A DNA stretch of 63,195 nucleotides, the filler included, from Anaerolineae bacterium (GTDB lineage: Bacteria; Chloroflexota; Anaerolineae; Epilineales; Epilineaceae): the NCBI GenBank assembly GCA_029262755.1. It is 4 parts of 4 records of this genome, joined end to end, with 100 filler letters (N's around TTAATTAATTAA, not from the genome) between each part and the next. Parts side by side here need not be neighbours in the genome. Positions count along the whole stretch, not along the records: positions 18,027 to 46,236 come from JAJCYU010000045.1; 3 more parts are not named here. The stretch is one strand, 5' to 3'. Shown in pieces: positions 42,001 to 45,000 of the stretch; position 1 is the first letter of the stretch, and each line of letters begins with the position of its first letter. Position numbers: made by a program.

Positions 42001-45000
42001 TTGCGACCGAGTACTACAGCTGCCGCGCCGAGCTCTTGATCGCGACGACCGCCGGACCGTCGTGTGCGAGCGCGCGATGGAGCGCCGGCCGCACCTCGCG
42101 CGCCGTCGTGACCCGAATCCCGAGGGCGCCGCAGTTCTCTGCGTATGACGCGAAGTTCGGGTTGGACAGGCCGGTTTGCCAAGGGTGGTATCCGCCGGCC
42201 TGCTGCTCTTTCGTAATCTTCGCCAGCTCGCCGTTGTCCAACAAGATCAGGGTGATCGGCATCTTGTACCGCACGGCGGTGTTTAGCTCGGCCATGTACT
42301 GCCCGAATCCACCGTCGCCGGCGATAGCGACGATGGCGCGCTCCGGCGCCGCCGACCATGCGCCCATCGCTGCCGGGAAGGCGAAGCCGATCGAGCCGAG
42401 GTAGCCGCTCATCAGCACGTCCTGTCCGCGGCTCTCGAAGTACTTGCCGAACGCGTACGCGTTGTTGCCTACGTCGACAGTGATCACCGCATCGTCCGGG
42501 CATACCTCGGACAACTCCTGGAAAATGCGGGCGTTGGGCACCCGTCCCTCCGCGTCCTTCGCGCTCGCGATGCGATGCTTCTCGCCGCGCCAATGGTCCC
42601 AGATCTTGGCGACATAGGCTCTTCGCTCGGGGCGGCTCACGGCCGGCAGCGCTTCCCGCAGCCGCTGGACCGTGCGTCCGATCTCGCCCCAAAGCGGGAC
42701 GTCCACCGGATGGAATTTGCCCAGCGTGAGCCGGTCGTAGTCCACCTGGATCGTCTTCTTCTTTGTGCTGATCCCCGTGTGGTTGCTGAAGCTCGCACCG
42801 AGCACCAACAGGACATCGCTCTTGCCCATGGTGGCGCTGGCTACCGGAGTGCCGCTTCGGCCCAGCACGCCGCACGCAAGGGGATGCGCATCCGTGACAG
42901 CGCCCTTGGCCTTGAACGTAGTGAGCACGGGGGCGTCGATGTGTTCGGCCAGCGCAAGGACGGCATCGGCATGCGCGCGACCTCCCTGCCCGAGCACGAT
43001 CGCCGGGGCGTCGGCGCTCGCGAGGAGCTCGATCGCCCGCGCAAGCTCGTCCTCGGGCGGTGCGATGCGATCCGGCGCCAGACGTCCGGCCGGCCCCGAT
43101 GTCGCTGCCCCCGCGTGGGCCGGGAGGTCCTGCATCTCGTCGGGAAAGATCAGATGCCCGACGCCCTGCTCGACGACCGCATGCTTGATGGCGAGCGCCA
43201 TCAGCTCGCCGGCATTCTCGGGGCGGAGGACGGTTTGGCTCCACGTCGTGACGGCGCGGAATGCATCATCGAGCGGCACTTCCTGAAATGCGCCGGGACC
43301 CAAGATTTGCGTTTGAACTTGTCCCGTAAGCGCCAAGATCGGCACCCGATCGGTCTTGGCGTCCCACAATCCGGTAAGGAGGTTTGTCGCGCCGGGTCCG
43401 GCGATCGAGAAGCAGGCGGCCGGCCGGCCGGTCAGCTTCGCGTGACCGCTCGCGGCGAAGGAGGCCGCGCCCTCGTGACGAATCCCGAAGTAGCGCAGAC
43501 GCCCGGCCTCCTCGGCCTTGTAGAGCGCGTCGGCCAGCCCGAGGTTGCTGTGTCCGACCATGCCGAAGACGCGATCGACGCCCCACGCGATCATCGTGTC
43601 GACCATCTGATCCATCAGCGTGGGCTCGTGTGTAGGCTCAACCACGCCCACGTAGATACCGTCCGCACGTTCCTCGACCGGCCATGCGTCCACGGCCTCA
43701 TCGTCGAATTCTCCCGGCGGCTTGCCGTTTTGGGGATCGTACTCCCACCCATGCCAAGGGCAGACTACGTATCCGTCTTGCAGGAAGCCGTCGCCGAGAG
43801 GACCCCCTTGATGCGGACATCGATTGCTGATCGCGCCGTAGCCATCCGCGCTCCGGCTCAAACAGACAGCGTGGTGGCCCGCCTGCACCGTGGCCAGACC
43901 GCCTTCGGCGAGGAGGGTCGTGTCGGCCACTCGAAACCATGTGTAGCGACCGACTTGCTCACCGCCGAGTTCGTGGACGGATGGCTGAGGCGCCAGCGGG
44001 CCATCCGGGGGCGCGGGCATCGCGGCGGAGATCGGGCTGGGCATGGGTAGCTCCGTAGTGGTTCGAGGAGGCGGCCGAGCGGATCGAAACGGGCGCCGCG
44101 ATCCAGCGTGCGCGTGGCTGCGGGTCACCGGGCGTAGTCGGCCATACACGCGAGACCGTTTCGTCGCCGTCGCAGTCTGGCTCGTTCGCGCCGTTTCCGT
44201 GGTGGGGGGGGCGACCAGAGGTAAGGGACGGGCACCGTAGCACGTCGAGCACCTGTGACGCGAGACGCGGCGCTGATTTCACCCACGTTGGGCTATGGGC
44301 TCGTCAAACGATCACAGGCGCTATTCGGCCACCGCCTGGCTGCCCCAGCGCCCCGCTGCTCCACCGCAATGGCGCTGCCATTACCTCGTCACCGCGAACC
44401 ACGGGAACAGCCAAGCGGCGCCGTCGGTAGCAGCCTCCTATTGTTTGACGAGCCCTATGGCTAGCATGGTCGGCCGCTCTTCGTAGGCTGACCTAGACCG
44501 CCCACCCGTCCTGGATGTTGTCCGATGCGCTCCGAGTTGCTCAATCTGTTGCGCCTTCTGGGCAGCCGCCGCCGTCGCTACGGGTGGGGCGCGCTCTTCC
44601 TCGCCCTGTCCGATGGTGGGCAGCTAGGCGTCGCTTGGTTGGTCGGCGAGGCGATCGATGCCTTGTCCGGATCCGGGCCGACGCCGGACCTCACGTCCTA
44701 CGTAGCCGGAATTGCCGTCCTCGCGGTCGTCATTGCGGCCGCGCGCGTGGGATGGCGTATCGCCATCTTCGGCAGCGCGAGGCAGATCGAGCGGGACCTT
44801 CGCCAACGCTTGTACGACCACCTGCAACGTCAAGACGCGCGCTTCTATCTGGGACGTAAGACCGGTGCGATGATGGCCTACGCCACCAACGACATCCCGG
44901 CGGTTCAAATGGCCGCGGCCGGCGGCATGATGGCGGGGCTGGACGCCGGCATCCAGTTCCTGGGCGCAGCCGTCATGATGACGCTCACCGTCGACGCGCG

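Follow-up and report, generated by a model that had tools for sequence, protein, structure and literature searches.

The fusion gene and its domains

The window, the whole stretch of 63,195 nucleotides that was analysed, carries on its minus strand a gene for a 676-residue protein in which an N-terminal Rieske domain is joined to a thiamine diphosphate (ThDP)-dependent core. The features of the locus are listed by position.

40663..41886 (+): 3' neighbour, convergent, DUF3810 protein; outside the system
42014..44044 (-): Rieske-ThDP fusion CDS (P0001, 676 aa, ATG start), span with the stop codon
42041..42475 (-): TPP_enzyme_C (ThDP diphosphate-binding), residues 524-668, with V525, G576-D577-G578 ... 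N604, K609 and E613
42659..43042 (-): TPP_enzyme_M central domain (Pfam), residues 335-462; its counterpart in PoxB and POX binds FAD
43277..43621 (-): TPP_enzyme_N (ThDP pyrimidine-binding; Pfam and alignments), residues 142-256, with the cofactor-activating Glu191 and F253
43625..43951 (-): Rieske [2Fe-2S] ferredoxin-like domain (PF00355 and structure model), residues 32-140
43751..43819 (-): codons of the ligands C76, H78, C95 and H98 (C-P-H-Q-G-G ... C-P-W-H-G-W), invariant in 179/179
43952..44044 (-): residues 1-31, Pro/Ala-rich N-terminus, pLDDT <50; not common to relatives
44525..46236 (+): 5' neighbour, divergent, ABC exporter (ABC_membrane and ABC_tran), truncated by the contig end; outside the system

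The 676-residue reading frame and its position are those given in an earlier note on this DNA. The longest open reading frame extends to a GTG at 44149 (42014..44149, minus strand, 711 aa), while the alignments of relatives begin at about residue 25-36 of the 676-aa form, and the real start may lie within residues 1-31. The gene is conserved, has a GC3 of 0.80 and hundreds of orthologues, so a chance reading frame is no concern. It is solitary, flanked by unrelated genes, and the convergent DUF3810 neighbour makes it monocistronic in the window. No RNA dataset was listed for it; the gene, or part of it, was present in four DNA datasets, of which one may be the source sample and the remaining three have small shares.

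Pfam was run on the 711-aa form, from which 35 is subtracted to obtain the 676-aa numbering. The Rieske family PF00355 matched at 70-143 (E=1e-14; 54.6 bits, cut-off 20.3), followed by TPP_enzyme_N at 177-291, TPP_enzyme_M at 370-497 and TPP_enzyme_C at 559-703, all far above their cut-offs, which confirmed the fusion of these domains described in the earlier note. In the structure model (pLDDT 90.8, pTM 0.88) the strands of the Rieske domain span residues 35-134 and the first core helix begins at 143, leaving a linker of about 8 residues. The best Foldseek matches of the model were activated PoxB (3EYA, target TM 0.92), L. plantarum POX and C. glutamicum PQO. Both the PYR-central-PP architecture and the fold place the protein in the ThDP POX/ALS (decarboxylase-type) superfamily. 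The segments G395-R396-S397-G398 and G416-A417-S418-F419-S420 of the central domain are invariant, and homology suggests that this domain binds FAD.

The catalytic core and its active site

Among solved structures, 3EYA aligned over its residues 8-526 with residues 146-670 of the fusion protein (E=4e-82), exactly as had been recorded before, with the tail absent. BLASTP against E. coli K-12 PoxB, a peripheral membrane pyruvate:ubiquinone oxidoreductase (PDB 3EY9 and 3EYA), gave 32% identity between residues 142-676 and PoxB residues 4-532 of 572. Since this alignment ends at residue 532, the last 40 residues of PoxB, which we take to be its lipid-activated membrane-binding tail, have no counterpart in the fusion protein. 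The latter stops 8 residues after TPP_enzyme_C and has no residues past the core, versus 40 in PoxB, so it is without the lipid-binding, activating tail; PoxB, in turn, has no Rieske ferredoxin domain.

The acceptor of POX and PQO is O2 or quinone. L. plantarum POX, SpxB and C. glutamicum PQO (PDB 9EV3-9EV6) share the fold of the fusion protein and lie in the same clade-level neighbourhood of the tree. True pyruvate oxidases such as P0157 (954 bits), unlike the fusion protein, extend about 40 residues further at the C-terminus and have no Fe-S domain. The best NCBIfam model for the fusion protein was the pyruvate oxidase PRK08611, at 397.6 bits (cut-off 742); the scores were 334.5 against 792 for PoxB (PRK09124), 292.7 against 637.85 for TIGR02720 and 289.6 against 538.35 for acetolactate synthase (TIGR00118), with every ALS model below its cut-off. 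No NCBIfam equivalog cut-off was reached, in keeping with the earlier statement that the pyruvate oxidase and dehydrogenase models match far below theirs.

Residues were compared in 179 full-length members (the query, 61 ORFs from the loci and 117 database proteins). The cluster ligands C76, H78, C95 and H98 were invariant in all 179, together with E191, G576-D577-G578 and N604, which extends to this whole set what had been noted of the ligands, Glu191 and the GDG...N motif. E613, the equivalent of PoxB E469, was likewise invariant (179/179). E191, D577 and N604 align with PoxB E50, D433 and N460, giving the Glu and GDG...N signature of Mg-ThDP binding common to both proteins. Moreover, F253 and V525, invariant in a 57-sequence alignment, correspond to PoxB F112 and V380 and would form the same small hydrophobic pocket. 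Docking in PMC7824062 places F112 and V380 of PoxB on either side of the alkyl group of pyruvate.

A departure from PoxB concerns Lys609, which is invariant in the 179 close members and occupies the position of PoxB Phe465, Met in most relatives. The aromatic residue that lies between ThDP and FAD in PoxB is therefore absent from the fusion family. Phe465 presumably corresponds to Phe479 of L. plantarum POX and is, we assume, implicated in electron transfer from ThDP to FAD; with Lys in its place, the flavin chemistry or the substrate of the family may differ, and the family is more than a tail-less PoxB. One reading of this lysine is that it binds an anion, so that the substrate would not be pyruvate; it would be a dicarboxylic, sulfonated or phosphorylated 2-oxoacid, or an acyl-phosphate would be formed via another route. 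The strict conservation of Lys609, the unmet pyruvate oxidase and PoxB equivalog cut-offs and the resemblance of the linked protein RGLT (see below) to a 2-oxoglutarate-handling enzyme all point that way. Nevertheless, the residues equivalent to those flanking the pyruvate methyl group in PoxB are conserved, and some representatives with a fused Rieske domain (P0122, P0124, P0125) have Met, Glu or Leu in place of Lys609, meaning that the lysine is not essential to the fused design. We regard a substrate other than pyruvate as rather doubtful.

The Rieske module, carrier swapping and tail loss

All 29 solved-structure matches of the Rieske module were Rieske ferredoxins or oxygenase Rieske domains, the closest being T4moC, the methanesulfonate monooxygenase ferredoxin, CarAc, BphF and oxygenase Rieske domains; T4moC aligned along almost its full length. 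Rieske proteins of these kinds accept electrons from flavoprotein reductases. The C-x-H ... C-x-x-H ligands and the PF00355 score identify the module as ferredoxin/oxygenase-type, and it is predicted to incorporate a cluster. Its earlier description as "NirD-type" was loose, with the NirD-like family PF13806 scoring 22 bits against a cut-off of 27 and no NirD entry among the 29 structures. Some relatives of the fusion protein do have a precomputed PF13806 match.

The nearest likeness of the module is to the ferredoxins of the T4moF/T4moC, BphG/BphF and CarAd/CarAc pairs. In such pairs, the flavin passes single electrons to the Rieske ferredoxin, and we propose the same logic for the fusion protein. 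The pairs are separate proteins that draw on NAD(P)H, whereas the fusion protein holds carrier and flavoenzyme in one polypeptide and its electrons would come from a 2-oxoacid via ThDP and FAD. No oxygenase was linked to the fusion gene across the 79 loci.

At least 8000 homologues were retrieved at E<=1e-3. Species genomes contain 581 stretches that encode a relative; they represent about 15 groups at phylum level, Asgard archaea among them, and identity across phyla is 51-72%. The family is thus large and unnamed, as had been proposed, and its range is far wider than the Chloroflexota and Actinomycetota to which it had been assigned. PF00355 was present in 118 of the best 120 homologues, rather than in all of them as the earlier note had it; the remaining two are shorter (593-594 aa).

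Relatives were clustered at 50% identity for a comparison of carriers. The nearest relatives with no Rieske domain (P0127, P0130, P0132, P0133 and P0147; 36-46% identity) have rubredoxin at the N-terminus, where P0122 combines Fer4_19, two CDGSH domains and a Rieske domain. In a FastTree phylogeny, 11 Rieske rows and 2 rubredoxin rows formed one clade with a local support of 100%. The fused proteins and closely related ones end 0-8 residues past the core, as opposed to 40-44 in PoxB and in the true pyruvate oxidases P0156 and P0157. Three loci of the rubredoxin-fused P0127 were examined; two of them (L096 and L094) have a gene for a Peripla_BP_6 protein downstream, and no GltS-like gene. From the carrier swaps, the tail loss and the kinship with Rieske ferredoxins, we infer that the N-terminal domain is the electron exit. 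The idea that the cluster takes up the electrons which PoxB hands to quinone is still conjecture, now better grounded by the swaps and that kinship.

The literature searched, which did not extend to subscription journals or domain-database notes, did not describe any pyruvate oxidase-like enzyme fused to Rieske or rubredoxin, nor any Rieske-GltS-like protein. Neither is described in the available parts of PMC8097209, PMC7824062 and PMC12288474. The silence of the literature on such a fusion, reported previously, was therefore borne out. The fusion is a real, uncharacterised variant on a known enzyme type.

Linked proteins and the proposed electron path

The main genomic context, overlooked in the earlier note, is a co-occurring and often adjacent protein, RGLT, together with DUF5996. 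RGLT has about 545 residues and combines a Rieske domain (PF00355) with the glutamate-synthase FMN domain (Glu_synthase, PF01645; E=3e-87). In 20 of the 79 loci its gene shares a strand with the fusion gene, and the gap between them is often 12-140 bp. At E<=1e-100, RGLT was found in 28/40 and 24/39 fusion-bearing genomes (52/79); in three of the 52, those of the closest Chloroflexota relatives of the query, the match is only 44-46% identical. It was not found in the other 27, which include G330, G346 and G361, whose records are titled as complete chromosomes. Neither protein was found in 300 genomes of the window's phylum. A 200-genome sample centred on Gemmatimonadota had both in 12 genomes, the fusion only in 2, RGLT only in 5 and neither in 181 (Fisher p=9e-14, overstated by the non-independence of relatives). 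In G509 and G443 the two genes are megabases apart on one chromosome. In the window's genome, RGLT is encoded on another contig (C128, 6159-7853) with 73% identity to the copy at locus L001, and the fusion protein and RGLT hold the only Rieske domains besides two matches limited to profile positions 28-84. The link to RGLT is non-obligate, the window's gene stands alone and the rubredoxin-fused kin have a different neighbour, all of which count against the electron path set out below, as do the unreached NCBIfam cut-offs and the Lys in place of Phe465.

The Rieske motif and a C-x5-C-x4-C-P motif of RGLT were invariant in 15/15 sequences. RGLT shares 33% identity with residues 863-1153 of E. 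coli GltB, in an alignment where the C-x5-C-x4-C motifs coincide, and scored 137-159 bits with the GltB equivalog model (cut-off 1047). Compared with GltB, it has no amidotransferase, central or GXGXG domain and has gained an N-terminal Rieske domain. GltB-type enzymes receive electrons from GltD or ferredoxin; the donor of RGLT would be another Rieske protein. Canonical GltB was not found in the window's assembly, which is 84% complete. Docking of the RGLT from the same genome with residues 32-140 of the fusion protein scored 0.00 (mark 0.32), which speaks neither for nor against binding. Of 8000 candidates scored in a search for longer joined proteins, one matched: P0271, a protein of 1195 aa with Rieske, Glu_synthase and ThDP domains, in which RGLT residues 19-409, about 144 unmatched residues and fusion residues 28-670 follow one another and the C-x5-C-x4-C-P motif is absent. 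We rejected P0271 as a true RGLT-ThDP fusion; it is most likely the product of two adjacent genes merged by a frameshift, and was for that reason left out of the fusion evidence.

A DUF5996 protein is encoded on the same strand as the fusion in 13 of 79 loci and, in many lineages, may act as a third partner. Its model (pLDDT 90.6) gave no PDB match in Foldseek at E<=0.001, and the best VIA-align Z score of 7.6 (MotA C-terminal domain, DUF1054, frataxin-like modules) falls inside the stated noise range of that tool. A protein atlas search returned DUF5996 clusters only, and the papers retrieved by one of the literature searches do not contain the name DUF5996. In two Bacteroidota loci (L008 and L065; 2/79), the same-strand cluster includes a ferric-reductase-type transmembrane domain, with a third Rieske domain either fused to it or coming after it. 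The window's genome has only stand-alone ferric-reductase-like ORFs, which are Rieske-free.

We propose that the fusion protein is a soluble 2-oxoacid dehydrogenase of the PoxB/pyruvate oxidase lineage, most likely acting on pyruvate, with a one-electron exit through the Rieske domain to a separate protein (probability about 0.6). By homology, the ThDP core would decarboxylate the 2-oxoacid, and the two electrons of hydroxyethyl-ThDP would pass to FAD in the central domain. The architecture suggests that they then leave singly through the N-terminal Rieske-ferredoxin module, which would functionally replace both the lipid-activated C-terminal tail of PoxB and its direct reduction of quinone. 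Where the acceptor of PoxB is the membrane quinone, that of the fusion protein is expected to be a protein; co-occurrence makes RGLT, with its Rieske, [3Fe-4S] and FMN centres, the best candidate. Domains, motifs, tail loss, carrier swapping and genomic linkage form the basis of this proposal, and from them we infer the chemistry.

In a more tentative extension, which we consider rather improbable, the fusion protein and RGLT would be a redox couple: pyruvate oxidation would drive a GltS-type reductive amination from Rieske to Rieske, bypassing pyridine nucleotide and free ferredoxin, with DUF5996 as an accessory. Taken alone, co-occurrence does not distinguish such a donor-acceptor pair from two enzymes sharing an acceptor. 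The latter could be consecutive dehydrogenases, RGLT converting an amino acid to a 2-oxoacid and ammonia, the fusion protein decarboxylating that 2-oxoacid, and both delivering electrons via their Rieske modules to a common third acceptor, for instance the respiratory chain or a cytochrome in the membrane. Neighbouring genes often encode successive steps, both proteins carry an N-terminal Rieske domain, and the ferric-reductase-type and Rieske proteins of L008 and L065 would be a plausible membrane acceptor; moreover, the fusion without RGLT (27/79) and RGLT without the fusion (5/200) show that each is workable with other partners. However, the ThDP pocket retains the pyruvate-sized F253 and V525 and RGLT its GltS-like motifs, so neither enzyme has to act on what the other produces. 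In addition, only two of the 79 loci contain the membrane Rieske protein, and no common acceptor was found in the window's genome. On balance, we think consecutive dehydrogenation unlikely.

It is very unlikely that the Rieske domain lies outside the electron path, as a sensor (of redox state, O2 or NO) or a structural add-on of a non-redox carboligase or H2O2-forming oxidase: FAD plays no catalytic part in the related acetohydroxyacid synthases, the ALS models score just about 100 bits below the pyruvate oxidase models and the docking with RGLT does not establish a physical link, but three unrelated one-electron carriers (Rieske, rubredoxin and CDGSH/Fer4_19) share the N-terminal position, always with tail loss, the cluster ligands are invariant, the nearest solved Rieske kin are dedicated electron shuttles and the fusion co-occurs with a second Fe-S flavoenzyme, RGLT.

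To our knowledge, the electron acceptor of every characterised flavin-dependent ThDP oxidase in this lineage is either O2, as for POX, or the quinone of the membrane, as for PoxB and PQO. If our proposed Rieske exit is correct, this clade would add a third option, in which a one-electron carrier within the polypeptide (CDGSH/Fer4, rubredoxin or Rieske) takes the place of the membrane tail, and the fusion protein would in effect be an analogue of pyruvate:ferredoxin oxidoreductase that tolerates oxygen and is built on another scaffold. The linkage to RGLT and DUF5996 provides a testable hypothesis for three uncharacterised families together, and testing is practical in Aureivirga marina LMG 26721, a cultured carrier whose locus L008 has the orthologue at 9986-11932 and RGLT at 7958-9592. 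Should the redox couple of the fusion protein and RGLT be real, it could be a main route of nitrogen assimilation in organisms, such as that of the window, in which canonical GltB was not found.

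Domain structure and active site of the fusion protein

The gene of P0001, a fusion of a Rieske domain with a PoxB/POX-like ThDP enzyme, is located on the second contig of the window (C45) and has a GC3 of 0.80. N spacers separate the contig parts.

1-17926, first contig, G+C ~39%
18027-46236, second contig, G+C ~66%
46337-59464, third contig, G+C ~66%
59565-63195, fourth contig, G+C ~66%
42014..44149, minus strand, longest open reading frame of the fusion gene (GTG start, 711 aa)
42014..44044, minus strand, ATG form of the fusion gene, P0001 (676 aa)
40663..41886, plus strand, downstream convergent neighbour, DUF3810
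44525..46236, plus strand, upstream divergent neighbour, ABC exporter truncated by the contig end
30862-34631, minus strand, phosphonate-type ABC transporter set

The gene is monocistronic at this locus, and no redox gene was present among the 17 ORFs scanned on C45. A look-up of RNA runs returned none containing the gene. The transporter set (a Phosphonate-bd binding protein, an ABC ATPase and a double-length permease) is ~8 kb away, with no evident link. Twenty contigs of the genome (~131 kb) fell into the 0.35-0.45 G+C bins; the low-G+C contigs, window positions 1-17926 and C78 among them, look like foreign DNA in the bin. The sole other ThDP-enzyme match to P0001 in this genome (33% identity) was on C78.

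Pfam assigned to P0001, in this order, Rieske (E=1e-14), TPP_enzyme_N, TPP_enzyme_M and TPP_enzyme_C. The top solved relative was E. coli PoxB (3EYA, E=4e-82, query 146-670 on chain residues 8-526), and the identity to the K-12 enzyme was 32%. The last residue of P0001 paired with PoxB residue 532 of 572, where the alignment stops. No NCBIfam equivalog cut-off was reached; the top model, pyruvate oxidase PRK08611, scored 397.6 bits against a cut-off of 742. In the family alignment, C76, H78, C95, H98, E191, the GDG motif (576-578), N604, K609 and E613 were invariant in all 179 full-length members. The earlier note had described this architecture, the same closest structure and aligned range, the missing PoxB tail, the intact ligands with E191 and the GDG...N motif, and pyruvate oxidase scores far under the cut-off, all of which were borne out.

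The AlphaFold2 model of P0001, built with a 57-sequence alignment as input, had a mean pLDDT of 90.8 and a pTM of 0.88, with disorder limited to residues 1-31. The Rieske strands spanned residues 35-134 and the first core helix began at 143, which leaves a linker of ~8 residues. Foldseek matches of the model were confined to the ThDP core (query TM ~0.72, target TM 0.92 for 3EYA), and no Rieske-ThDP fusion was found among solved structures.

Compared alone with solved structures, residues 32-140 gave 29 matches, all of them Rieske ferredoxins of oxygenase systems or oxygenase Rieske domains. These included T4moC (query 25-102 on 24-100 of 111 residues), the methanesulfonate monooxygenase ferredoxin, CarAc, BphF, DdmC and NdmA; none was a bc1/b6f-type or NirD entry. 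The NirD-like Pfam model scored 22 bits, under its cut-off of 27, and the former label of a NirD-type domain is loose. The motif C-P-H-Q-G-G ... C-P-W-H-G-W has no counterpart of the two additional cysteines found in respiratory Rieske proteins, a feature of the low-potential class.

As reported in a docking study (PMC7824062), PoxB F112 and V380 lie within 2-4 Å of the substrate's alkyl group, with pyruvate or 2-oxobutyrate as substrate. They paired with F253 and V525 of P0001, both invariant in the 57-sequence alignment, and PoxB E469 paired with E613. In contrast, PoxB F465 is replaced by K609, which does not vary among the 179 close members, and PoxB L253 by the invariant R396. Position 609 is Met, Glu or Leu in the relatives P0122, P0124 and P0125, and Lys in the rubredoxin-fused P0127 and P0130. 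With the former residues aligned and the latter changed, the core looks pyruvate-sized, with flavin-side chemistry that would be unlike that of PoxB.

Distribution of the family and exchange of the N-terminal domain

A word-indexed search gave at least 8000 relatives among the scored candidates. The best 120 had been said all to carry PF00355 plus ThDP domains; this stands for 118, the other two being shorter proteins of 593-594 aa. Among one-genome-per-species contigs, at least 601 stretches matched the pattern and at least 581 encoded a relative. The best 79 of these loci had 51-71% identity, the Rieske part included in nearly all. Their groups, assigned from record titles, were Chloroflexota, Gemmatimonadota, Bacteroidota (including cultured Aureivirga marina LMG 26721), Acidobacteriota, Planctomycetota, Myxococcota, Alpha- and Gammaproteobacteria, Poribacteria, Actinomycetota, Cyanobacteria, Chlorobiota/Ignavibacteria, Calditrichota, Spirochaetota, Neomarinimicrobiota and Heimdallarchaeota, so the family is not limited to Chloroflexota and Actinomycetota, as previously proposed. 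The reported patchiness was confirmed: at E<=1e-150 a sample of 300 other genomes from the window's phylum did not contain the fusion, and it was present in 15/201 genomes of a Gemmatimonadota-centred sample. High identity across phyla, combined with this patchiness, suggests that the gene spread horizontally. At the Calditrichota locus L066 (7845-12931), genes of a Pyr_redox_2 flavoprotein disulfide reductase, the fusion and an EgtD-like histidine methyltransferase (PF10017) follow one another on one strand, upstream to downstream.

Searched exhaustively, 1.84 billion cluster representatives yielded 37,240 matches at E<=1e-3, of which 2,954 reached E<=1e-30. At 50% identity the Rieske-fused family reduces to few representatives (P0122, P0123, P0124 and fragments). 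All next-closest full-length proteins (P0127, P0130, P0132, P0133, P0147; 36-46% identity) carry an N-terminal rubredoxin. P0122 (873 aa, 53% identity) has Fer4_19, two CDGSH and a Rieske domain before the ThDP core, in effect an electron wire of four centres in a single polypeptide. PRK08611 was the top NCBIfam model for Rieske- and rubredoxin-fused relatives, always under the cut-off; P0157, a true member, scored 954 bits. Aligned with PoxB, the fused proteins and their closest unfused kin had 0-8 residues beyond the core; PoxB, P0156 and P0157 had 40-44. In a FastTree phylogeny of 94 cores (midpoint rooting only, SH-like support), 11 Rieske rows, 2 rubredoxin rows and one long-branch row grouped in a single clade (local support 100%). 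PoxB and POX were nested within the other 80 rows, near whose base the remaining rubredoxin forms branched.

At the level of sequence, nothing argues more strongly that the N-terminal domain may carry the enzyme's electrons than the occurrence of varied one-electron carriers at one position, each with the membrane tail lost; we read the domain as the putative electron exit. Two further rubredoxin-fused genes, at L096 (8001-10922) and L094 (663-3591), encode proteins 77% and 73% identical to P0127; directly downstream of each is a Peripla_BP_6 gene (amino-acid-binding-protein fold), a context unlike that of the Rieske clade.

RGLT and DUF5996 as companions of the fusion

ORFs were called in the best 79 loci and clustered by BLASTP. 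RGLT, a protein of ~545 aa with Rieske and Glu_synthase domains (Pfam; PF01645, E ~1e-90), was encoded on the same strand as the fusion in 20/79 loci, often 12-140 bp off, and a DUF5996 protein (~280 aa) in 13/79. At least one of the two was present in 28 loci and both in 5, with varying gene orders (THDP-RGLT, RGLT-THDP, THDP-DUF5996-RGLT and RGLT-x-DUF5996-THDP, THDP being the fusion). The RGLT Rieske motif GRC-x-HRGAL ... CG-x-H-x-WD and a C-x5-C-x4-C-P motif were invariant in 15/15 sequences. The latter pairs with the same motif in E. coli GltB (33% identity over GltB residues 863-1153), whose cysteines are ligands of the [3Fe-4S] cluster. P0271 (1195 aa) joins RGLT (residues 19-409), ~144 unmatched residues and the fusion (residues 28-670), with C-x5-C-x4-C-P missing; a frameshift that merged two neighbouring genes is its probable origin, rather than a true Rosetta-stone fusion.

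Module-type DUF5996 proteins (L002 12084-12920 and 10 relatives) share W-P-H-H-F-D and G-D-x3-P-x-P-Y-F-Y-V-x-P-W-P. The window's genome has two DUF5996 proteins; the first motif is absent from the canonical one (C346) and reads W-P-H-G-F-D in the other (C120). A module-type model (pLDDT 90.6) had no Foldseek match in the PDB, and its best VIA Z of 7.6 was at noise level (frataxin-like and DUF1054-like modules).

In two Bacteroidota loci, L008 (12573-13607, plus strand) and L065 (12328-13362, plus strand), the same-strand cluster includes a ferric-reductase-type transmembrane domain (PF01794); a third Rieske domain is fused to it in L008 and follows it in L065. Over ~70 residues this third domain shares 41% identity with that of the ThDP fusion, and DUF1622 and YHS-domain genes adjoin.

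The window's genome (5.06 Mb, 428 contigs, 84% complete) also encodes RGLT:

C128 6159-7853, minus strand, RGLT, 73% identity to the copy at locus L001
C128 4469-6190 (locus L086), minus strand, 573-aa ORF without Pfam match, ~30 bp overlap with the end of the RGLT gene

The two may be co-transcribed. The genome has four Rieske domains: the fusion, RGLT and two matches covering just profile positions 28-84, which may be respiratory-type Rieske proteins.

At E<=1e-100, RGLT was found in 52/79 fusion-bearing genomes (28/40 plus 24/39), three of the 52 copies being just 44-46% identical, and in none of the 300 further genomes from the window's phylum, where the fusion was absent as well. In the Gemmatimonadota-centred sample, 200 genomes with the centre genome left out, 12 had both, 2 the fusion only, 5 RGLT only and 181 neither (odds ratio 217; Fisher p=9e-14, overstated as relatives are non-independent). 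The two genes are megabases apart on one chromosome in G509 and G443, so the co-occurrence is more than operon hitch-hiking. The link is not obligate, since 27/79 fusion-bearing genomes had no RGLT; most of these genomes are MAGs of unknown completeness, and G330, G346 and G361 (titled chromosome/complete) are among the 27.

Proposed electron path and novelty

P0001 is best read as a soluble member of the POX/PoxB lineage that would act as a pyruvate (2-oxoacid) dehydrogenase. The tethered Rieske ferredoxin would reoxidise its FAD one electron at a time and deliver the electrons to a protein acceptor, for which RGLT is the foremost candidate. The oxidation of pyruvate is strongly reducing, and Rieske ferredoxins of the oxygenase type have potentials near -150 mV. 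With the values given for GltS in PMC8097209, in which the native [3Fe-4S] cluster (~-280 mV) adjoins FMN (~-240 mV), transfer from the fusion to RGLT would be allowed.

A donor-acceptor couple, in which pyruvate oxidation powers GltS-type reductive amination, fits the genomic data. The data also fit two dehydrogenases feeding a shared acceptor; in favour of this arrangement, the L008 and L065 clusters hold a ferric-reductase-type transmembrane domain and a third Rieske domain, a possible membrane acceptor.

As in the earlier searches for such a fusion, no paper in the openly accessible literature was found to describe the Rieske-ThDP architecture; the same holds for the relatives fused to rubredoxin, for DUF5996 and for the Rieske-GltS-like protein. 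Domain databases do show the architecture, and it may have been noticed there, under generic names ('thiamine pyrophosphate-dependent enzyme', 'Rieske 2Fe-2S domain-containing protein', 'acetolactate synthase large subunit-like protein/nitrite reduct...').

The GltB central domain (PF04898) was present in 14/14 control genomes, and none scored above the cut-off in the window's 84%-complete genome, where the sole strong Glu_synthase matches were RGLT and a stand-alone ORF (C407 13897-14850, open frame ~493 aa). A role of RGLT in nitrogen assimilation is therefore possible, if the missing GltB is no assembly gap. What is new is a predicted ThDP flavoenzyme of POX/PoxB type whose electrons would leave through an Fe-S domain of its own, belonging to a three-gene module with RGLT and DUF5996 that was not noticed before.
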